Below, one piece after another: positions 500 to 44,441 of a stretch of DNA of 44,680 nucleotides. Under the pieces are notes generated by a model that was not told the DNA's origin, did no database searches, and saw nothing but the letters and a program-made list of their open reading frames with translations. The stretch's first letter is position 1, and each line of letters opens with the position of its first letter. The stretch lies in UHGV virus genome UHGV-0024713, one strand, 5' to 3'. Both the position numbers and the translations under genes were made by a program. The stretch is from a virus.

Positions 500-2770
500 A
501 TGACCATGAGTTTAATTAAATTCGCCGTAACAAGACCCGCTAAAAAAGGCGAAAAAGCCAGGGCGGAAAACTTCCAGATGACCACCGATGAATTTTTCGA
601 ATTTATCAATGACGCGAAAGAAATCTCCTCGGTGCATATCAACAAGACCGAGGATAAAGCCGAGTATGCGCGCCGCAAGCGTAAGGCCGATGGCATCGTA
701 GCGTATACCAGTGATGGCTTACGCCGCAAGACCAGCGCGGTGGACCGCTCGATCCTGTTCTTTGATATTGACCGCACCGACACTCGCACCTTGCGCCGCT
801 GCCGTAAGGCTTTCATCGACGCGGGTCTGGAACACGTATTTCACACCACTACCGGCGACCGCCACCCGCTGAAAGGAGGCACGCGTTGCGCTCGCTTCCT
901 GGTACTCACTGACAAGCCTGTACCGGCTGAAGACCTGGGCCGCGTCCAGTATGCACTATTACACCAACTGGGGCTGTCAGATGTGGACTTCGACGATTGC
1001 ACGAAAGACACAAACCGCCTTATGTACCTGCCTCACCAGCAATCGGTTGTTAAGTGTCACTATGGCAAGCGCGCCCGCGTCCGTCGTCTGCTCCGCCTGG
1101 CTGACAAGCTGGGGGTTGAGAAAGAGGAAGTTCGCCGCGAACTGACCCAGGGCGACGACGCAGTGGCAGACGGCATTCTGGACTGGTGCTTCCAGGCAGG
1201 ATTCGAGGAGTTATCTTCCGGTCGCGGTTATGAAGTGCCATGCCCTAACGAACACCTGCACAGCGGCGAAGGGTCGACGGCTATCATGGTCAAGGATGGC
1301 GAGATCCGTTTCAAGTGTATGCACACCGGCAACGAGTGTTGCTCGGAGCTAAATAGACACCAGCACCTGGCGCTACGTCTCATCGGGATACCGGACCACC
1401 TGAACGTCGAGCCACACAATATGTCCCGTAAGCAAATCGCCGCCATCCTGCCAGGTCTGGACGACGAGGAAGTCGAATCCTTATATGATCACATTGTTGA
1501 TGCGGTTGGCGACGGCGAAGAATACGGCGTGTGCACCGATGCGGATCTGGATAACGAGCCGGTCGCACTATTCAGTAAGCACGACCCGATTATCGAGGGG
1601 TTGATTAACTTTAAATCGACCTGGTACATGGCGGGTGAGTCGAATATCGGTAAATCGTTCTACGTGCTGGGCCAAATGGGCGCTGTTGCCGCCGGTATTC
1701 CGTTCGGCGGTGCGAAGGTTGTCCAGTCGCATTGCTTCTATTTCGATGCGGAAGGTGGCGAAGCCTCCCACCAGCGTAAGGAAGCATTGCAGATCAAATA
1801 TGAGCACGACCTGGACAAGCTGCACATTATCGACCTGCAATCTCGCGGCTGGGATATCACCAGCAAGTCCGGTTTGCGTGAAGTTATCAGCTTCATCAAC
1901 CGCACCGCTAACGGCGAACCGGTTGGCCTGGTGGCGTTCGACTCCCTCAACCAGACTGTTGCGCTGCGGTCTGCCGATGCTAAACCGTTTGACGAGAACA
2001 ACGCCAGCGATATGGGTGAAGTGGTCAAAGCGCTGAAGGCCATCGCGGAAAATACAGGTGGCAGTGCGGGCGTCATCCACCACCCGGCTAAAGGTGCAAA
2101 CGGCAGCAGAACCCCACGCGGGTCCGGCGCGCTGCATGGTGCTGTCGATTCTGCGTTCTTCCTGGAACAGCCGGACGACAACCAGCCCGGACAATTGAAC
2201 CTGTATCATGAGAAGTCACGTAACGGCATCAAGCAAGCGCCACGCGGCTTCGTCCTGCTCAAGTGCAAGGTTAAGGTGGATCTCCGCAAGTCCGAGGCGT
2301 TCGAGGCGCACCAGTCCACCAGCACCGGGCCAGACTTCGGCGACGTGGTCGCCGGATGGGACGTCAAGCCGATTGCCTCCACGCCACGCGACGAGACTCT
2401 CTATCTCGTACCGGTTGCCCTGGCACCGTTCGCTATTGAACAGGCGAAGGCAGCGGGCAAAGCAGCAGTTAAGGAAGAGAACACCGCCGGACCGCGCAAC
2501 GAAAAAGAGAAAGTGCTTTATGCGGCCCTGGAAAAACTGATGGAAGATAACCCGGACCATACCGGATTCAGTAAATCGGCAATTGTCCGCCAGGCGGGAT
2601 TGGCAAAAGGTGGCACATCGACGAAGGCAATCGACGATATGGTCGAGCGCGGCGTACTCGGTTTTTATACAGACCCACACACCGGGGCCATCTATGGGTC
2701 GTCTAATATCGTCATAAAAACGAATATACCCATCACGCTTTCAGCGACCGATGACGACCTGAGTGATTAG
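500..2770 (+). CDS. Primase-polymerase / helicase fusion (PrimPol-like N-domain, Zn-ribbon, P-loop helicase core, C-terminal extension)
   Basis: N-terminal ILFFDIDR acidic motif; Cys/His cluster CPNEHLHSGE...KCMHTGNECC; Walker A GESNIGKS, Walker B-like LVAFDSL, VIHHPAKG...GSGALHGAVD typical of RepA/DnaB-like P-loop helicases. Confidence 0.7.
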   Translation: MTMSLIKFAVTRPAKKGEKARAENFQMTTDEFFEFINDAKEISSVHINKTEDKAEYARRKRKADGIVAYTSDGLRRKTSAVDRSILFFDIDRTDTRTLRRCRKAFIDAGLEHVFHTTTGDRHPLKGGTRCARFLVLTDKPVPAEDLGRVQYALLHQLGLSDVDFDDCTKDTNRLMYLPHQQSVVKCHYGKRARVRRLLRLADKLGVEKEEVRRELTQGDDAVADGILDWCFQAGFEELSSGRGYEVPCPNEHLHSGEGSTAIMVKDGEIRFKCMHTGNECCSELNRHQHLALRLIGIPDHLNVEPHNMSRKQIAAILPGLDDEEVESLYDHIVDAVGDGEEYGVCTDADLDNEPVALFSKHDPIIEGLINFKSTWYMAGESNIGKSFYVLGQMGAVAAGIPFGGAKVVQSHCFYFDAEGGEASHQRKEALQIKYEHDLDKLHIIDLQSRGWDITSKSGLREVISFINRTANGEPVGLVAFDSLNQTVALRSADAKPFDENNASDMGEVVKALKAIAENTGGSAGVIHHPAKGANGSRTPRGSGALHGAVDSAFFLEQPDDNQPGQLNLYHEKSRNGIKQAPRGFVLLKCKVKVDLRKSEAFEAHQSTSTGPDFGDVVAGWDVKPIASTPRDETLYLVPVALAPFAIEQAKAAGKAAVKEENTAGPRNEKEKVLYAALEKLMEDNPDHTGFSKSAIVRQAGLAKGGTSTKAIDDMVERGVLGFYTDPHTGAIYGSSNIVIKTNIPITLSATDDDLSD

Positions 2771-2826: not shown

Positions 2827-2876
2827 GTGTAGTGTGAGTATAGTGAATAGTTATGCAATAAATCTGCATAAACTAA

Positions 2877-2978
2877 GCGGGACAAAAAGCGGGACGGACC
2901 AGGGGCGGGACAAAGCGGGACAGCACCCCTGTCCCGCCCCGGATGACGCGGCCTGGCGGGGAGCGGGACAGCGGGACA
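2877..2978. repeat. Iteron array A: six direct GCGGGACA octamers plus one inverted copy, including palindrome GCGGGACAGCACCCCTGTCCCGC (2915-2937)
   Basis: Octamers at about 2877, 2889, 2905, 2915, 2963, 2971; inverted TGTCCCGC at 2930-2937; no credible ORF. Confidence 0.7.
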
Positions 2979-19766: not shown

Positions 19767-19770
19767 TGAA

Positions 19771-20029
19771 GCGGGACAAAACGGGACGTCCCGTTTTGTC
19801 CCGCCCCTGCAAAACTGCATATACAATCACTTCAATTGCATAAACTCAAAGCGGGACAGGCGGGACACCCCGTTTTGTCCCGCCCTGTAAATGTGCATAC
19901 CTATGCAGATCTCGTGCATAAAGTAAGCGGGACAGAAAGCGGGACAAACAAGGGGCGGGACAGAGCGGGACAGCACCCCGTCCCCGCCAGTGCTGCCGCG
20001 GTTTTTAGTCGATCGGGACAGGCGGGACA
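19771..20029. repeat. Iteron array B: about 10 GCGGGACA-type octamers in both orientations, including a perfect 34-bp palindrome (19771-19804)
   Basis: GCGGGACAAAACGGGAC/GTCCCGTTTTGTCCCGC; octamers at about 19851, 19860, 19927, 19939, 19955, 19965, 20013, 20022; 19915-19988 is near-identical to 2865-2940. Confidence 0.7.
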
Positions 20030-38113: not shown

Positions 38114-38392
38114 CTACGCGACCAATTCAGCAACCAATAAATCACAGTCGGCTATGCTGTCGATGACGCGAACGTCAGCGCCTCGGCGGGCCATTCGCTC
38201 ATGTTCACGTACCTGGTGCGGCTTCGGTTTTCCTCCTGGGCGCTTCACTTCGACGAACACTATTTTGCCGTTGATGATGATAATCAGGTCGGGCGCACCT
38301 ACGCGCCCCTCCCAGGCCATTTTGCGGCAGAATCCGCCTACCTCTTTCACCCGTCGCATCAGGTGTCTTTGGATCTTGCCCTCGGGTGTCAT
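38114..38392 (-). CDS. VRR-NUC domain nuclease
   Basis: PDLIIIINGKIVFVEVKRPGGKPKPHQ (PD...EVK) and size typical of VRR-NUC; start overlaps the polymerase stop. Confidence 0.7.
   Translation of the reverse strand: MTPEGKIQRHLMRRVKEVGGFCRKMAWEGRVGAPDLIIIINGKIVFVEVKRPGGKPKPHQVREHERMARRGADVRVIDSIADCDLLVAELVA
38118..38138 (-). promoter_or_regulatory. Promoter candidate with motif pair inside the 3' end of the VRR-NUC gene
   Basis: Minus strand ATTGGTTGCTGAATTGGTCGCG then TATAGT; -35 TTGCTG, 17-nt spacer. Confidence 0.4.
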
Positions 38393-40683
38393 TATTTCCT
38401 GTACCTGTACATGATGTCGCCTTCCGCGGCAAGCGGGAAGCCTTTCGCCCAAACCGGCAGGTCGCACATCAGCGCGCACAACTCCTCGGTTGTGTAGTCG
38501 TCAGTGTCCGGAACTTCGGTGATCAGTTCATCGTGTACCGACAGTACGATCTCATAGCCAGCGGCCTCAACACCCGGCATGGACCATGCGAGAATATCGC
38601 GGCACAGCGCCTGCACTATGTTTTCCGTCAGTTTGCCGCCGTAGGTATACTGGAAGCCCCACTGGCGCGTAGTCTGATTCTCGCCCTGGTATTTGATGCG
38701 GGTACTGGTGCGCTTCTTGCCGGTGTCTTCGGCAATCTCGGTCGTGACAGACAGCGCAATGCCTGGATAACTCATAATACGCCCCGACGGCAACTCAATT
38801 TTAAGCCACCACCCCGCTGCGTTCGGGTCGTCGCGCTCCTCGTCGAAGGTTGGGTCATGCTTCGCCTTCGTGCGAACAATCTTGAGCGCTTTCTTGCCAT
38901 CAGGGCGAACGTGCGCGCCAGCCCAGTATGCCTTGCCAGGGTTGCGAATTGCGCATAACACCGCATACTCAAGCTCGGCCCAAAATGCTACGGTCTTCGG
39001 GTGGGCCTCACGCCACATGCGTTTGATCGCGTCGCATGTCAGCCACACGTTTTTAGGCAGTATGTAGGTTGGACGCTCGTCTTTCTTGCCAGGCTTCGGC
39101 GGGCGCTTCGCTTCGTTAATGCGAGCGTACTCATAACCACGCTTCGCCGCCGCCCAAATGTGATCCGGGAATGTGCCCTTCATGACGTCTGCCATCGCGT
39201 ACAGGTCCAGGCCCAGGTTTTTAGCGAACTGCAAGAACGCCGCGACGCCGCCACCGTAGCCCAGGCCAAGCTCGCAAGCCTTCCCGATCTGACGTAAATC
39301 CTTGCGGTTGGCTTTAATGTATTCCGGATCGAGGCCGAACATCTTACCGGCAGTCTCACAATAAATATCGCGACCGGCCCTAAACACCATTAGCGCGGTT
39401 TTCTCGCCAGCGATCCAGGCAAGCCCGCGCCCTTCCACGTTGGAGTAATCCGCTACGACAAACTTCTTACCCTTAGCAGGGATAATGCACCCGCGAACGG
39501 TTGAGGCGGTTAACTTCGATATGTCATACGCCCAGTGCGCGGTGCCGCGTAACAGGGAGTTGATACCGTTGGTGAGCATGTGCGACCGGACCCAAAACGA
39601 GACGTCGCTTTCTCCTTCGCGGCGTTTAATCTTCCCTTCGTGGTCGTCACTATAATCGCCGCGCGCCAGGTTTTGAGGCTGAAAGCCTTTACCAGCCCAG
39701 CGCAGCGTGCGCTTTGCTCCTCCATACTGAAGACAACCACGGCGGCGACCGTCGGCAGACAGACCATTTACGAGCGGATTGTACTTAGTCGATGCCGTTG
39801 ATGACGCACCGAGACGCATCTCAATCAGCGCTTTGCCCTCGTCGGGGAAGTCCGGGTCTTCAAGCAAATCGTTCAGCGTGGATTTCTGCGCGTTATGGAT
39901 CGTGAACGCCGGGGCGATATCACGCAGGATTGGCAGGAAGTCGTTGCCTGTTAGCTTACCGCCGAACCGCTCCCATGCCTCCTCCTTCAATTCTTCCTTA
40001 TGCGCCTGCACCGCCTTGATCGCGGCGTTCGCCAGGTCAACGTCCACATGGAAGCCGCGGTCATTAATCAACTGGTCGATGAGCAGGATTTCGTCTTCTT
40101 TCGGAGAGTTGCCCCAGTCCGGTATGCGCCAGTAGACTTCGCGCATTGCCACAATATCCAGCGCGGCGTAGCGCAGGAATTTGGCCCACTCTTCAGGGTG
40201 TGTCTCGCGCGTGTAACGGCGGATTTTGTAGGTTTTAGGGGTAGGCTTACAGAACCGTTTGATCAGCGCCTTGCCGGCCTTATCCTTTGCGTGTTCCGCG
40301 TCAACGCCCAGTACCTGACACTGCATATCGAGGCTACCCGGCAGCGCGTGGCGGAATGCCATAATCATGGTATCCTCGATCTGGCTTACCGGCAGGTCGA
40401 TGCCCCACTTCTCACGGATAACCAGGCGGTCGAACAGGAGGCCGTTAGCCATCACTATTTTAGCCTTCTTGCGCGATACCCGGCGCAGCGCCTTGCGTAG
40501 TTCGCGCGGCATTGTGGGGGACTCAGTGGCATCCCATGTCTGCACGCGGCCCTCGTCGATGGCGTAGGTGCAAATCATAATCTCGGTTGATGGGTGTTCT
40601 GCGTAGGCGTACGCGCCTACTTTCTTCAGGTCCACACCGCTAAATGTCTCGGTGTCGAGAAACAGGCGTTCGAAGTCTTTCAT
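38392..40683 (-). CDS. Family A DNA polymerase with 3'-5' exonuclease domain
   Basis: Exo I FLDTETFS; motif A DYSNVEGR; motif B RQIGKACELGLGYGGG; motif C VLSVHDEL. Confidence 0.9.
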   Translation of the reverse strand: MKDFERLFLDTETFSGVDLKKVGAYAYAEHPSTEIMICTYAIDEGRVQTWDATESPTMPRELRKALRRVSRKKAKIVMANGLLFDRLVIREKWGIDLPVSQIEDTMIMAFRHALPGSLDMQCQVLGVDAEHAKDKAGKALIKRFCKPTPKTYKIRRYTRETHPEEWAKFLRYAALDIVAMREVYWRIPDWGNSPKEDEILLIDQLINDRGFHVDVDLANAAIKAVQAHKEELKEEAWERFGGKLTGNDFLPILRDIAPAFTIHNAQKSTLNDLLEDPDFPDEGKALIEMRLGASSTASTKYNPLVNGLSADGRRRGCLQYGGAKRTLRWAGKGFQPQNLARGDYSDDHEGKIKRREGESDVSFWVRSHMLTNGINSLLRGTAHWAYDISKLTASTVRGCIIPAKGKKFVVADYSNVEGRGLAWIAGEKTALMVFRAGRDIYCETAGKMFGLDPEYIKANRKDLRQIGKACELGLGYGGGVAAFLQFAKNLGLDLYAMADVMKGTFPDHIWAAAKRGYEYARINEAKRPPKPGKKDERPTYILPKNVWLTCDAIKRMWREAHPKTVAFWAELEYAVLCAIRNPGKAYWAGAHVRPDGKKALKIVRTKAKHDPTFDEERDDPNAAGWWLKIELPSGRIMSYPGIALSVTTEIAEDTGKKRTSTRIKYQGENQTTRQWGFQYTYGGKLTENIVQALCRDILAWSMPGVEAAGYEIVLSVHDELITEVPDTDDYTTEELCALMCDLPVWAKGFPLAAEGDIMYRYRK

Positions 40684-40850
40684 TGCTTTATCCTCACTAC
40701 GGCGTCAGCGTTGCCGATCATGGAGAAGATGCCGTCGGAAAGGGTTATCTCCTCGCCGTTGTTGCGAATCTCGGCAACGGTGAAATATTCGCCCAGCAAT
40801 TTGGACCACACCTGCATTCCGACTTTTACTTCGCTGGCTTTAATACGCAT
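40680..40850 (-). CDS. Small hypothetical protein (56 aa), coupled to the polymerase gene
   Basis: Stop overlaps the polymerase ATG (ATGA); under 60 aa so absent from the ORF track. Confidence 0.4.
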   Translation of the reverse strand: MRIKASEVKVGMQVWSKLLGEYFTVAEIRNNGEEITLSDGIFSMIGNADAVVRIKQ

Positions 40851-40862
40851 TTTTCATTGTCC

Positions 40863-40889
40863 TATTAAAAAGCCCGCATTAAGCGGGCT
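40863..40889 (-). terminator. Intrinsic terminator (minus strand) after the SSB-like gene
   Basis: Minus strand AGCCCGC-ttaa-TGCGGGCT followed by TTTT. Confidence 0.6.
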
Positions 40890-40908
40890 TGAATAGAGGG
40901 CTTTGCCC

Positions 40909-41691
40909 TTAACGGCGGCGACGTTTACGTGGTGCTTCGTCGTCGTCTTCGTCCTCATCTTCGTCATCGCGGGGCTTACGACGCTTGCGAGGTTTTGCAT
41001 CTTCCTCATCGTCATCGTCATCGCGGCGCTTTGATTTTTTGGACTTGCGCGGCTTGTCATCTTCGTCATCGTCATCACGACGTTTTGACTTCTTAGACTT
41101 GCGCGGTGCTTCGTCTTCGTCGTCGTTGTCCAGGTCTTCATCAGAGCAAGAAGACCCGCCACCCCCGAAGGCTTCCCCGTCTTCACGGAAGCGCAGCCCC
41201 AGCAATCCCGCACCGAGTCCCTTGCCGTTGGTGTTGTTCCACGCCCAAATATCGAGTGACACGTTGCAATAGCAACCGGAATAGATTTCCTGGCCTTCGA
41301 TCTCGTCGCCTTCAACCGTCAGACCTTGTTCAGTCTGCTTCTCGCCAAGTGACGTTTGGATGTTCGGCTGTTTGAACGATTTGGCGTTGATGTACAACAT
41401 GCCTTCAAACTCTTCGGTTACTTCGTCGCGCTCGTCACCGTCGCGAACTGCGCATTCCTTAGAGTCCTGTGCGTAATGGCGGTCCATCCACTTATCGGCA
41501 TTCTTCTCGGATTTCAGCTTGTCGGTGAGCACTGCGCGCGCTGCCGCTTCCACTTTGTCCACCTGCGGATCTTCTTTATCCAGAAGAATCACGGCACGGT
41601 ATGCCGGTTTTTGTCCATCCTGTTTAGGGGTGTCACGTTCCCAAATTTTCAGGAAACATACGCGCACATTTTTCAGGTTGACTTTAGCCAT
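40909..41691 (-). CDS. ssDNA-binding-like protein (DUF2815-type by recollection) with long alternating acidic/basic C-terminal tail
   Basis: Start at internal ATG with GAGGA RBS; N-terminus MAKVNLKNVRVCF; C-terminal 85 aa made of PRKSKKSKRR / DDDDEDD repeats; position beside the polymerase. Confidence 0.45.
   Translation of the reverse strand: MAKVNLKNVRVCFLKIWERDTPKQDGQKPAYRAVILLDKEDPQVDKVEAAARAVLTDKLKSEKNADKWMDRHYAQDSKECAVRDGDERDEVTEEFEGMLYINAKSFKQPNIQTSLGEKQTEQGLTVEGDEIEGQEIYSGCYCNVSLDIWAWNNTNGKGLGAGLLGLRFREDGEAFGGGGSSCSDEDLDNDDEDEAPRKSKKSKRRDDDDEDDKPRKSKKSKRRDDDDDEEDAKPRKRRKPRDDEDEDEDDDEAPRKRRRR
41005..41120 (-). repeat. Tandem DNA repeats (about 55-57 bp units) encoding the charged C-terminal tail
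   Basis: tcatcgtcatcgtcatcgcggcgctttgatttttt... repeated with variation. Confidence 0.6.
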
Positions 41692-41746
41692 TTTCCAATT
41701 CCTCATTTTCACATGTATCGGGGTTATTGTGAGCCACCCCGTTCGG

Positions 41747-41781: not shown

Positions 41782-42024
41782 TCAAGCATTTTCATTAAAA
41801 AGATTTCGGGTCACGTAGTTGGTGGCGTTCTCGATCCAGCTTAGCGGCGGGCGTTCGATGTTCTTTTCCACCCAGGCGACGGCAACTTCGCTATAGCCGT
41901 CATCCAGCCAGCGGGTCGGATGGCGAATCATCCACGCCACCATTAACACGCCTTGCACGCAATGCAGGATAAAGCCCAGCGCGCCGAGCAAAAACATCAA
42001 TAAGATTGCGAATACTTTATTCAT
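41782..42024 (-). CDS. Small membrane protein (80 aa)
   Basis: N-terminal hydrophobic helix; overlaps the upstream gene stop. Confidence 0.45.
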   Translation of the reverse strand: MNKVFAILLMFLLGALGFILHCVQGVLMVAWMIRHPTRWLDDGYSEVAVAWVEKNIERPPLSWIENATNYVTRNLFNENA

Positions 42025-43447
42025 TGCTTAAGTCCTCGTCAGTAGCTTCCGACCACGCAGGGCGAGGGTCGTCGATTGGTGCTAATACCGGTTTGGCGGG
42101 TGCGCGCGTGATTTTATCACACAGCTTCGCCCACACTTTTGGTTTTTCGTCCTTCAATACCTTCTCTGCATCCGTAGGGCTGAGCAATGTTTCTTTGTAC
42201 ATCACATCGCGCTTGATCCGTGCCTTCGTGAAGATTTCAATCACTTCGCTCTCGTCCGCCCACTTGCGGATTCCTTCCTTACCGGCAACCATCTTGAGGC
42301 CAAGCGATTCGCCATCACCCGCCATTACAGCCTTAAACACCGCGGACTCGATAGCCTTGATGTGCTGGCGCATTGCGTCCAGGCCTTCATAAGCCTTGCG
42401 CAGTTCCGCGGCGGTCATAGCGCCTGGTGTGGCTTCCTTCTTGCCACGCTTCGCACGTCGTGCCGCCTTCCTGGCTTCGCGGGCCATATTGCGGTCATGG
42501 TTGGCGCATTCTTCCTCTGTCGCAATACTCACGTCGTCGCCCAGGTCTTCGTCGGTTGCCGTTGGGGGTGTCATAGTGTCGATTGCGGCCTTAGCGCGGG
42601 CACTACACTGATCCGCAAATCGGCACCACTGGCACGCATCAACGCTGGGACGGAAGTCGGCACGGGTAAGTCCCCTCTTGCCTCGGGAATACGCCTCCAG
42701 TGAGGCAATAGCGCGCTTGGATGCAAACTTCGCGAATATCTCCAGCGCTTCTACCGAAATATCCCACTCCGACGCCCCGCCGCAATACGGCTGGAAGATA
42801 ACCAGGCGAACGGTCGTAATGTCGTACATAGTTTGCAGCTTGCGCAGCAGTCCGAGCGCGTACAACATAAGCTGTTTGTTCTCTTTCGCCTCGACCTTAT
42901 GCCGCCCGGTCTTCAGGTCGCCAACAATCAGCATGTACGTCCCATCGGTCTTTTTCATGACCATGACCATATCGGCAGTACCGAACGTTTTAATCCTGTT
43001 GCCGTCGATCTCGTAGCCTGAGTGAAGGACGCGGGTCAGATCGGCGCGCATCTCAAGCTGGACAAACTCCGCCACTTCGAGGAGCGGTCGCCAGTGGTCG
43101 ATGTACGCGTCGCACTGTTTCACCATGTCGTCGTTGACCAGTACGCCGCCTTTCGGTGCTTTCGGGTGTGCCTTTACCGGCCCCTTTCCTTCGTTCTCGA
43201 CGTAGCACCCTTTATACGTCTTCGCGGTTATCAGCTTCTCACCGGCGATAATGCGGTTTAGCACCACTTCAGATACGGTGTGCATACTCGTACCGTTAAT
43301 CGCGGCTTGCCCGGATTCGTTCGGGATATCTTTTTCCACCACCAGGGCCGCAGGGCAACCCATCCACTTTTTAGCACCGGATGGCCCAAGTAATGAGTGT
43401 TCTGTATTGCTACCGGATTGCGTTTTACGTTTTGGTTTAATCGCCAT
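42017..43447 (-). CDS. PD-(D/E)XK nuclease, Cas4/RecB-like (DUF2800-type by recollection) with C-terminal Cys cluster
   Basis: 476 aa; CQWCRFADQC Cys cluster typical of Fe-S Cas4-like nucleases; position in the replication operon. Confidence 0.6.
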   Translation of the reverse strand: MAIKPKRKTQSGSNTEHSLLGPSGAKKWMGCPAALVVEKDIPNESGQAAINGTSMHTVSEVVLNRIIAGEKLITAKTYKGCYVENEGKGPVKAHPKAPKGGVLVNDDMVKQCDAYIDHWRPLLEVAEFVQLEMRADLTRVLHSGYEIDGNRIKTFGTADMVMVMKKTDGTYMLIVGDLKTGRHKVEAKENKQLMLYALGLLRKLQTMYDITTVRLVIFQPYCGGASEWDISVEALEIFAKFASKRAIASLEAYSRGKRGLTRADFRPSVDACQWCRFADQCSARAKAAIDTMTPPTATDEDLGDDVSIATEEECANHDRNMAREARKAARRAKRGKKEATPGAMTAAELRKAYEGLDAMRQHIKAIESAVFKAVMAGDGESLGLKMVAGKEGIRKWADESEVIEIFTKARIKRDVMYKETLLSPTDAEKVLKDEKPKVWAKLCDKITRAPAKPVLAPIDDPRPAWSEATDEDLSNE

Positions 43448-43925: not shown

Positions 43926-44441
43926 TTAATCTTCCAGTTCGAAATAAGTTTCGACGATTTCTTTAAGATCTTTGTGGAAGTCTTCGACGTCTTCATCTTC
44001 CAGCTTGGCGATTGATTTGATCTCGAACGATTCCAGCAGGTCGTCAAATTCGTCGTTCGCGTCGTCGTCGTCACCACCGGCAATAATAGCGGCATATTGT
44101 TTGATTTCGTCGCGCATCTCCGCCAGCGGATCGGCATCTTTCTTGCCTTTGCCTTTCGCCGGGGCTTTTTTAGATTTAGCCGGTTTTTCGTCTTCGGCAT
44201 CATCGTCGTCATCTTCTACGACTTCTTTTTTGGCCTTACCTTTCGCAGGGGCTTTTTTAGATTTAGCCGGTTTTTCGTCTTCGGCGTCATCGTCGTCATC
44301 TTCTACGACTTCTTTCTTGGCCTTAGACGGCTTCTTGTCTTCCTGCTTACCAACGGCAGCGCCAACGGTTTCATAATGCTTAGCGATGGTTTCCAGTGCT
44401 ACTACGCCGCGAGTAATCAGGTTTACGATTTGTTCAAACAT
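43926..44441 (-). CDS. Highly charged tandem-repeat protein (171 aa) with alternating poly-Asp/Glu and Lys/Ala-rich blocks
   Basis: Two near-perfect 28-aa repeats KKEVVEDDDDDAEDEKPAKSKKAPAKGK; GGAGA RBS; own terminator. Confidence 0.65.
   Translation of the reverse strand: MFEQIVNLITRGVVALETIAKHYETVGAAVGKQEDKKPSKAKKEVVEDDDDDAEDEKPAKSKKAPAKGKAKKEVVEDDDDDAEDEKPAKSKKAPAKGKGKKDADPLAEMRDEIKQYAAIIAGGDDDDANDEFDDLLESFEIKSIAKLEDEDVEDFHKDLKEIVETYFELED
44150..44320 (-). repeat. 84-bp tandem duplication (2 copies) inside the charged-repeat gene
   Basis: ...cgccggggcttttttagatttagccggtttttcgtcttcggcatcatcgtcgtcatcttctacgacttc... repeated with 2-3 substitutions. Confidence 0.7.

Follow-up and report, generated by a model that had tools for sequence, protein, structure and literature searches.

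The window analyzed here, the whole 44,680-nucleotide stretch of UHGV virus genome UHGV-0024713, encodes on its minus strand an SSB (a protein that binds single-stranded DNA) with a long C-terminal tail in which acidic and basic blocks alternate. The tail was found to be a canonical net-acidic tail lengthened by charge-compensated modules. The term zwitterionic, used in a first-pass annotation made from the sequence, did not hold for the tail as a whole. Comparison of related genes indicates that selection acts on the tail peptide and not on the DNA repeat. The most likely reading, which has clearly less than even confidence, is that the tail forms a disordered multivalent electrostatic tether.

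Identity and fold of the core

The gene and the predicted core domain are located as follows.

40909..41712, minus strand: SSB gene, longest open reading frame (ORF), with a GTG start at 41712 and the stop codon at 40909..40911
41167..41691, minus strand: predicted gp2.5/Enc34-type OB-fold core, residues 1-175 of the 260-residue form (AlphaFold2, Foldseek, BLASTP)

The ORF was identified with very high confidence as a real gene for a gp2.5/Enc34-type SSB of a Dhillonvirus-like coliphage. Translation from the GTG gives 267 residues. The true start is probably the ATG at 41691 rather than the upstream GTG, because a GAGGA (41700..41704) sits 8 nt upstream of the ATG. This start gives 260 residues, the same length as in the SECphi18 annotation.

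The ORF matched Pfam family PF10991 (Enc34_ssDNA-bd, formerly DUF2815) with 111.1 bits against a cut-off of 26, and the match spanned residues 10-200 and profile positions 2-173 of 176. It also matched PHROG 112, 'Gp2.5-like ssDNA binding protein and ssDNA annealing protein', and it is solely this label that suggests a strand-annealing activity. Sequence matches in the PDB were 4KLK, 4JG2 and Enc34 ORF6 (5ODJ), with E-values of about 1e-11. An AlphaFold2 model built from 123 homologues had a predicted local distance difference test score (pLDDT) of 94-98 over residues 1-170. Foldseek searches with this predicted core retrieved 4KLK (2e-12), 5ODL (3e-12), 4JG2 (6e-11) and T7 gp2.5 (1JE5, 2e-6), as well as 5ODJ. 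In the model the core is a variant OB fold like those of 5ODJ and 1JE5. The SSB-like identity proposed in the first-pass annotation was borne out by the Pfam match, by a core modelled at pLDDT above 90 and by the structural matches.

Alignment with Enc34 ORF6 by BLASTP placed W149 (numbering of the 260-residue form) opposite Enc34 Trp150. This residue is the counterpart of T7 Tyr158, an aromatic that opens strand beta4 and makes stacking contacts with the 5' bases (PMC5686142). N153 was found opposite Enc34 Asn154, and the second stacking residue, Enc34 Tyr156, aligned with an asparagine.

Two other SSB types were ruled out. A bacterial-type SSB (PF00436, tip DDDIPF) did not fit, as the ORF had no match to PF00436 at E <= 0.01 and ends in PRKRRRR; E. 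coli SSB (1QVC) was reached by Foldseek merely at E 0.84. A T4 gp32-type SSB was dismissed on the lack of any Pfam or PDB match to gp32. NCBIfam contained no model for the SSB, nor for the exonuclease or the primase-helicase encoded in the same window. Among related proteins, a preference for single-stranded DNA (ssDNA) has been demonstrated biochemically for Enc34 ORF6 (PMC5686142), and the orthologues of SECphi4, SECphi6 and SECphi18 are SSBs shown experimentally to trigger Retron-Eco8, for SECphi4 by genetic evidence.

Architecture of the tail

The tail comprises the last 78 residues, S190-R267 of the 267-residue ORF (nt 40912..41145). It consists of four units, each an acidic block followed by a PRKSKKSKRR-type basic block, in the order SDEDLDNDDEDEA / PRKSKKSKRR / DDDDEDDK / PRKSKKSKRR / DDDDDEEDAK / PRKRRKPR / DDEDEDEDDDEA / PRKRRRR.

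41146..41166, minus strand: Gly-rich hinge GGGGSSC between core and tail, where pLDDT drops from 97 to about 70
41107..41145, minus strand: acidic block 1, with the proximal motif [ST]D[DE]DL common to the C-termini of the primase-helicase and the exonuclease
41077..41106, minus strand: basic block 1, PRKSKKSKRR
41053..41076, minus strand: acidic block 2, DDDDEDDK
41023..41052, minus strand: basic block 2, PRKSKKSKRR, the same peptide as block 1
40993..41022, minus strand: acidic block 3, DDDDDEEDAK
40969..40992, minus strand: basic block 3, PRKRRKPR
40933..40968, minus strand: acidic block 4
40912..40932, minus strand: terminal Arg cluster PRKRRRR, part of the EAPRKRRRR that is invariant in 28 orthologues
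41001..41126, no strand assigned: DNA tandem repeat with a period of 54 bp (18 codons), 2.3 copies, 77% matches, score 154 (Tandem Repeats Finder)

The first-pass annotation had assigned 85 residues to the alternating region, which is right once the GGGGSSC linker is counted with the 78-residue tail. Its coordinates, 40909-41125, take in the stop codon and the last 71 codons, but the tail starts at about 41145, some 20 nt further on. The protein ends ...DDDEAPRKRRRR, unlike the acidic run with a terminal hydrophobic residue that is usual in PF10991 and lies outside the Pfam model, which stops before the tail.

The charged fraction of the tail was 0.81 and its net charge -7. Charge segregation was measured with a kappa-like index of our own implementation (blob size 5), which differs from the published CIDER code. 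The index was 0.61 for the tail compared to a shuffle mean of about 0.12 (z = +9.9), and none of 5000 shuffles equalled the observed value, which confirmed the alternation of acidic and basic blocks. The tail is predicted to be disordered. Its pLDDT was 48-60, and the only secondary structure in the model was a one-turn helix on DEDL.

The period of 54 bp agrees with the repeats of about 55 bp reported earlier. A recognisable DNA repeat was confined to the two middle units, so that the statement that tandem DNA repeats encode the tail stands for these two and not for the others. The DNA of the two PRKSKKSKRR units differed at six of 30 nt, all of them synonymous.

Variation and selection among close relatives

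Tails were compared among 28 orthologues with cores at least 93% identical, drawn from viral and metagenome contigs plus SECphi18. All 28 carried the tail in the same frame. Four basic blocks were present in 18 of them, three in seven and two in three; SECphi18 has four and SECphi4 three. The four-block form was also that of a 537-member protein cluster. The last nine residues, EAPRKRRRR, were identical in all orthologues. Differences in length were whole-module insertions or deletions, all multiples of three, and the several different indel junctions showed that these events happened repeatedly.

Pooled ratios of non-synonymous to synonymous differences per site (pN/pS; Nei-Gojobori-type counts, 16 orthologues) were 0.06 for the core and 0.11 for the tail (pS 0.31), the latter from a low-complexity alignment and uncorrected for multiple hits. 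The in-frame orthologues, the low pN/pS and the synonymous divergence between units together exclude an artefact and show selection on the peptide.

In one contig (L015, IMGVR_UViG_3300045988_003101), the SSB frame ran into ...AVSYTHLRAHET at the contig end. This resembles a translated Nextera adapter, which was presumably left in the assembly.

Tails across the PF10991 family

A full-protein search returned 106 homologues, nearly all with alternating tails. As this search was word-seeded and its query included the tail, the sample was biased. An unbiased, core-only phmmer search of 1.84 billion cluster representatives gave 2,234 family members, and tail statistics were taken from the best usable 147 of these. 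The median tail in this set was 26 residues. Acidic tails with a hydrophobic end (...DDDDLI, ...DDDIPF) were found in 131 of 146 representatives, in line with the earlier remark that the alternating tail departs from the usual short acidic tip. At least one basic block was present in 16 representatives of the same set and at least two in nine; four had a basic end. The basic-block tail is a minority variant, seen in roughly 6-11% of representatives. The first-pass annotation had called the architecture rare, which is correct for the family as a whole, but it is universal in a large enterobacterial siphophage clade (Dhillonvirus, Jerseyvirus, Kagunavirus).

A neighbour-joining ordering of the cores gave one large clade with basic blocks throughout, in which the hydrophobic tip has been lost. 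Its members include the SSB of UHGV-0024713, the Jerseyvirus and Kagunavirus SSBs, that of Hafnia phage TS33 and those of many metagenomic phages. About a dozen more basic-block tails were scattered among canonical neighbours, and these kept a DDDLV/DDDIPF-type tip after the repeats. One of them (P0096) has six DDDEDEAPRKRRASR units followed by DDDDDLV, and the SSB of a Labrenzia prophage has eight DDRSSRRSRRSR units followed by DDDL. This distribution suggests that basic-block tails expanded repeatedly and independently; the resolution of the tree is low, and part of the sample was biased by the tail-bearing query.

The net charge of canonical tails had a median of -7. Tails with at least two basic blocks had a median of -8 (interquartile -10 to -6; n=106, 40-169 aa), and the tail of this SSB falls on the canonical value. 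Its two internal modules carry net charges of +1 and -1; since such inserts add almost no net charge, the total stays at the family norm. In the literature, where coverage of subscription journals was thin, no paper was found on alternating-charge or Arg-tipped tails in DUF2815/gp2.5-type SSBs.

A peptide shared by replication proteins

The first acidic block opens with SDEDL (41131..41145, minus strand), where the model has its only tail helix. Similar sequences were found at the C-termini of two other replication proteins of the window. The primase-helicase ends ...SATDDDLSD* (2744..2767, plus strand) and the exonuclease ...EATDEDLSNE* (42020..42046, minus strand); the latter also has an internal TATDEDLGDD (DEDL at 42542..42553, minus strand). 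Among 337 six-frame ORFs of at least 60 residues, only these two proteins had a C-terminus formed by [ST]D[DE]DL plus 0-4 residues, a count that illustrates the pattern rather than tests it, as the motif patterns were written after the sequences had been seen. The exonuclease motifs were conserved in 12 Dhillonvirus loci.

The shared-peptide pattern recurs across six genomes. In Jerseyvirus Ent1 and Kagunavirus K1G, the primase-helicases end ...TEGDLE and ...TEEDL and the exonucleases ...TEEDLE and ...SEEDLE. The SSB tails of these two phages, ...SVDDLEDDEDETPRRERRRNR and ...SVNDLEDDEEDEAPRRERRRR, are minimal, each with a single acidic block and an Arg cluster. In Enc34, whose SSB carries a canonical tail, only five of 272 ORFs end in a DE-rich stretch plus EV, namely those of the primase, ORF3, the exonuclease, the SSB and the small terminase. 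In two distant lineages (L020, L022), ...DDL closes the SSB, the DUF2800 protein and a small upstream protein. SDEDL is probably a docking peptide common to the primase-helicase, the exonuclease and the SSB, to judge from this recurrence.

T7 offers a published analogy: there, gp2.5 uses its acidic tail to dock on the polymerase (gp5) at a front basic patch, a site also bound by a peptide that mimics the tail of the helicase-primase gp4 (PMC12339929). In crystals of the Enc34 SSB, the tail occupies the groove of a neighbouring molecule, and deletion of the tail permits binding of double-stranded DNA (PMC5686142).

The Enc34 small terminase (L019 10318..10893) ends ...EADDDEV, the same tip as on the SSB, primase, exonuclease and ORF3. 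This hints that packaging in Enc34 may use the same docking site as the replication proteins.

A second protein with segregated charge

The first-pass annotation had pointed to a separate protein at 43926..44441 as mirroring the SSB tail.

43926..44441, minus strand: 171-residue protein, PHROG 3127, predicted to start with a helix, to be disordered in its centre and to close with an acidic domain of three helices that contains NDEFDDLL
44130..44351, minus strand: alternating Lys-rich/acidic centre of this protein, residues 31-104, which holds an 87-bp x 2.2 tandem repeat at 44137..44325

The AlphaFold2 model of this protein had a helix over residues 2-24, a disordered stretch over 25-104 (pLDDT 40-47) and a three-helix domain over 105-167 (pLDDT >90). 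The centre contains two 29-residue units, KKEVVEDDDDDAEDEKPAKSKKAPAKGKA, from the 87-bp repeat (93% matches), and its kappa-like index was 0.46 (z = 5.7, equalled by no shuffle). Dhillonvirus homologues are 115-181 residues long, and their centres range from nearly absent to three units. In other genomes the same position is taken by proteins that resemble it in sequence at both termini (Ent1 gp41, K1G gp42, L020, L022), and Enc34 ORF3 is of comparable size in the same slot. Several counterparts end in the tip shared by the module, for instance ...EEEEEAPKARRRSNDDL in the Labrenzia prophage. The 171-residue protein seems to belong to the DUF2800-DUF2815 replication module as a conserved component. 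It had no Pfam or NCBIfam match, its PHROG matches were solely to families of unknown function, and a Foldseek search of the PDB gave nothing significant (best E 0.5).

The parallel with the SSB is real in architecture and genomic context: both proteins have a segregated charge repeat, and the genes are syntenic. The two proteins are, on the other hand, not homologous, and their repeat lengths did not co-vary (21 genomes, Spearman 0.21, p = 0.37, kinship uncorrected). A correlation in the first 14 genomes (Spearman 0.57, p = 0.03, kinship likewise uncorrected) vanished at 21 and was discarded. The shared interaction put forward in the first-pass annotation is plausible by way of the acidic-hydrophobic peptide motif, but not by way of the repeats.

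Possible function of the tail

As a tether, the tail would work as follows. SDEDL would be a docking or auto-inhibitory peptide for a common hub: the DNA polymerase on the analogy of T7, or the SSB's own DNA-binding groove on that of the packing in the Enc34 crystal. Behind this motif lie one to three near-neutral modules (about 8 acidic and 8-10 basic residues each), which arose by in-frame tandem duplication of 54-bp units and whose number rises and falls between closely related phages. The tail would keep the net charge with which it competes against DNA for the OB groove. The invariant end, an acidic run plus PRKRRRR, takes the place of the canonical acidic-hydrophobic tip. Together, the alternating modules and the Arg tip may form a salt-sensitive multivalent tether whose basic blocks bind either to DNA phosphates or to acidic blocks on adjacent tails, with cooperative coating or annealing of ssDNA as the outcome. 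A precedent for such a use of charge is T4 gp32, in which the basic 'LAST' motif KRKST and an acidic region give cooperativity (PMC12893549).

Several observations weigh against the tether. The number of blocks varies from two to four among viable phages, and the Guernseyvirinae have one acidic block plus the Arg cluster, so the internal modules must be dispensable, at least in number. Deletion of the T7 gp2.5 tail left retron activation unaffected. In the available part of Table S2 (bioRxiv 10.1101/2022.08.27.505566), the Dhillonvirus escapers of Retron-Eco8 carry changes in the core (T56P) or upstream of the gene and none in the tail. The model figure of the SECphi4 study omitted 'flexible C-terminal residues'. 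To these points should be added the low-complexity tail alignment, the low resolution and sampling bias of the tree and the motif patterns written after inspection, as described above.

The main rival to the tether holds that the internal modules are tolerated products of slippage or unequal recombination without a function of their own, with selection acting only on frame, disorder and overall net charge. Expansion by acidic residues alone would do harm, so that only self-compensating units would survive, and only the proximal motif, and perhaps the Arg end, would matter. This explanation is in itself rather unlikely. It is favoured by the range of two to four blocks among phages with cores at least 93% identical, with several deletion junctions, the single acidic block and Arg cluster of the Guernseyvirinae tail, a net charge kept whatever the tail length, and a 171-residue neighbour that gains and loses units alike (115 to 181 residues). 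It is opposed by the pN/pS of 0.11 in aligned modules and by PRKSKKSKRR peptides that are identical despite 20% synonymous divergence. The predominance of the four-block form (18 of 28 genomes and the 537-member cluster) also argues against it, as do the distant lineages that apparently evolved the same architecture independently. A further proposal, which takes up the condensation suggested in the first-pass annotation, is that the SSB tail and the centre of the 171-residue protein drive complex coacervation, by which proteins of replication and recombination would gather on phage DNA. Charges arranged in blocks favour phase separation, and the SSB of E. coli is a condensate-forming protein. 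The two regions have a high charge content, are segregated (0.61 and 0.46) and are predicted to be disordered, and both genes belong to one early operon that is syntenic in Jerseyvirus, Kagunavirus, Enc34 and the two distant lineages. Such a condensate scaffold is nevertheless improbable, given the missing co-variation of repeat lengths (n=21), the Dhillonvirus homologues of 115-124 residues that are nearly devoid of the charge repeat, and the lack of homology between the two proteins. An extended form is rated just as improbable: a DUF2800-DUF2815 module with a common 'currency' peptide (DDL/DEDEV), in which the SSB tail both presents and masks the peptide and zips SSBs and the 171-residue protein into a salt-sensitive condensate on ssDNA.

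The remaining explanations have lower probabilities. Loss of the tip together with the basic blocks might let the SSB evade host sensors, or host proteins by which SSB-type tails are recognised. SSBs recur as triggers of defence systems, and those of Dhillonvirus and T7 are sensed by Retron-Eco8. Counter-defence is still very unlikely, because Retron-Eco8 senses the SECphi4 SSB all the same, activation by T7 needs the OB fold and not the C-tail, the escapers in the available part of Table S2 map to the core or the promoter region, and no evidence links the tail to any defence system. The 54-bp repeat inside a replication gene could also act at the level of DNA, as origin iterons or an array of protein-binding sites, with the peptide as a by-product; the origin of phage lambda lies within gene O. 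The chance of this is minute, and a DNA-level function was rejected on three grounds. The two 18-codon units differ at nine synonymous and three non-synonymous codons with the peptide kept, the copy number varies, and GC skew tracks the direction of transcription without a switch near 41 kb. Distant homologues, moreover, keep the charge pattern with other residues and codons, and better iteron candidates were found elsewhere in the window (AGCGGGAC clusters).

An assembly, sequencing or frameshift artefact, or a product of another frame, has practically no probability left. A second coding-strand frame is open across the whole tail (ORF 40854..41315, minus strand), but only because DNA so rich in GAT, GAC and AAG is free of stop codons in that phase. 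This frame is the one read by two database proteins (P0005 and P0008, one of them from GenBank phage vB_EcoS-22664B1; ...MTKMKHRARLRS...). They are most likely indel errors; judged from the point of divergence from the SSB sequence, P0008 apparently breaks at the G run encoding GGGG. Against an artefact stand the same frame and ending in 28 genomes that were assembled independently and in clusters with hundreds of members, length differences that are all multiples of three, and a selection analysis that supports the annotated frame. The artefact and the alternative frame were rejected as effectively refuted by the orthologues and the selection analysis, and the tail can be taken as genuine.

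Genome setting

The 6.7 kb around the SSB gene were 92-94% identical in nucleotide sequence to more than 140 Escherichia/Shigella siphophages of the genus Dhillonvirus, among them StarDew, ZCEC10, SECphi18, EP23 and slur05. Identity to SECphi18 in the SSB region was about 93.5%. With its 44,680 bp the window has the length of a complete genome of such a phage.

42017..43447, minus strand: DUF2800 PD-(D/E)XK exonuclease (Pfam and PHROG matches)
500..2770, plus strand: primase-helicase with an AAA_25 domain (domain match)
38392..40683, minus strand: family A DNA polymerase (Pfam and PHROG matches), candidate common docking partner by analogy only
40866..40890, minus strand: hairpin that resembles an intrinsic terminator, with a U run behind it, immediately past the SSB stop codon and ahead of the 56-residue ORF and the DNA polymerase gene

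The SSB gene is part of a minus-strand operon at the right end of the window. In the order of transcription, the operon begins with the gene for the 171-residue protein, two small ORFs and the exonuclease, continues with an 80-residue ORF, the SSB ORF, the terminator and the 56-residue ORF, and ends with the polymerase, a VRR-NUC protein, an SNF2 helicase and others. The exonuclease gene adjoins that of the SSB/annealase on the same strand, with one small ORF between the two, and this gene order is unchanged in Ent1, K1G, Enc34, L020 and L022.

The hairpin had a folding energy (dG) of -25.3 kcal/mol (z = -4.4). It was revealed by folding of the strand and was not flagged by a consensus terminator scan; in phage Ent1 a terminator is annotated at the matching position. 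A terminator after the SSB gene would permit expression of the SSB above that of the downstream polymerase.

The 56-residue ORF between the SSB and polymerase genes (40680..40850, minus strand) corresponds to what is called '56aa protein of unknown function' in SECphi18 and SECphi6. A frameshift in that protein, E21fs, is among the defence-escape mutants in the available part of Table S2 (bioRxiv 10.1101/2022.08.27.505566).

The octamer AGCGGGAC occurred in ten copies, all on the plus strand, in two clusters of five (2876..2977 and 19770..19971), compared to a mean of 1.6 and a maximum of 7 in shuffled sequences. The first cluster lies just downstream of the primase-helicase gene. The second lies in a gene-poor stretch before an 880-residue gene, within a 79-bp tandem repeat with GCGGGACA...TGTCCCGC hairpins. 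The clusters are candidate iterons or operator sites.

Comparison with known systems

One close known relative is the SSB ORF6 of Enterobacter/Hafnia phage Enc34 (5ODJ, 5ODK, 5ODL). The two proteins share the Pfam family, the predicted fold, the 5' stacking Trp, a disordered net-acidic tail and a neighbourhood of small acidic protein, DUF2800 exonuclease, SSB and DNA polymerase. They differ in that core identity is merely 26%, Enc34 Tyr156 is replaced by Asn, and the Enc34 tail of about 29 residues is purely acidic and ends ...WDEDEV, compared to 78 residues with four basic blocks and PRKRRRR here. The SSBs of SECphi4, SECphi6 and SECphi18 are orthologues with the same tail architecture, and nothing essential differs.

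T7 gp2.5 has the same type of OB fold (Foldseek E 2e-6, predicted structure), with only 13-14% identity in the structural alignment. Its acidic tail, which docks partners and competes with ssDNA, closes with acidic residues and a final Phe (...EADEDGDF) and lacks basic blocks. The T7 helicase-primase tail shares the docking site on the polymerase, and a parallel may be seen in the [ST]D[DE]DL shared here.

The cooperativity and autoregulation of T4 gp32 come from contacts, both intra- and intermolecular, between a short motif of Lys, Arg and Ser and an acidic region (PMC12893549). PRKSKKSKRR resembles the LAST motif KRKST in composition, as a functional analogy only. The fold of gp32 is unrelated, and its basic motif is single and N-terminal with the acidic domain at the C-terminus, whereas both kinds of block alternate in one tail here.

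The linker of E. coli SSB is likewise a disordered segment of variable length between an OB core and a docking peptide, and distant PF10991 members place alternating repeats exactly between the core and the canonical tip. This linker probably tunes cooperativity and condensation. Unlike the present tail, it is Gly/Gln/Pro-rich and nearly uncharged, and it is followed by a DDDIPF tip that is absent from the end of this SSB.

Implications

The SSB of UHGV-0024713 is an ordinary member of a known family, and its tail refines existing knowledge without constituting a new system. An acidic C-terminal segment has been described as characteristic of all prokaryotic and phage SSBs in the Enc34 structure paper (PMC5686142). 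A whole clade of SSBs from well-studied coliphages and Salmonella phages nevertheless ends in an Arg cluster with interspersed basic blocks, the total charge of the tail being unchanged, and the clade includes the SECphi4/SECphi18 protein used for Retron-Eco8 studies.

If the improbable 'currency' scheme were true, primase-helicase, exonuclease, small acidic protein and SSB would all bear the same acidic-hydrophobic tip, the SSB of one large enterobacterial phage clade would have turned its tail into an Arg-tipped, blocky polyampholyte, and a replication compartment would form by complex coacervation. The natural series of two, three and four modules provides a system for studying how charge patterning of a disordered tail tunes the behaviour of an SSB, namely its cooperativity, its discrimination between single- and double-stranded DNA, annealing, the recruitment of partners and possibly condensation. 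That three proteins, the primase-helicase, exonuclease and SSB, share a C-terminal peptide suggests a simple wiring rule for a very common phage replication module.

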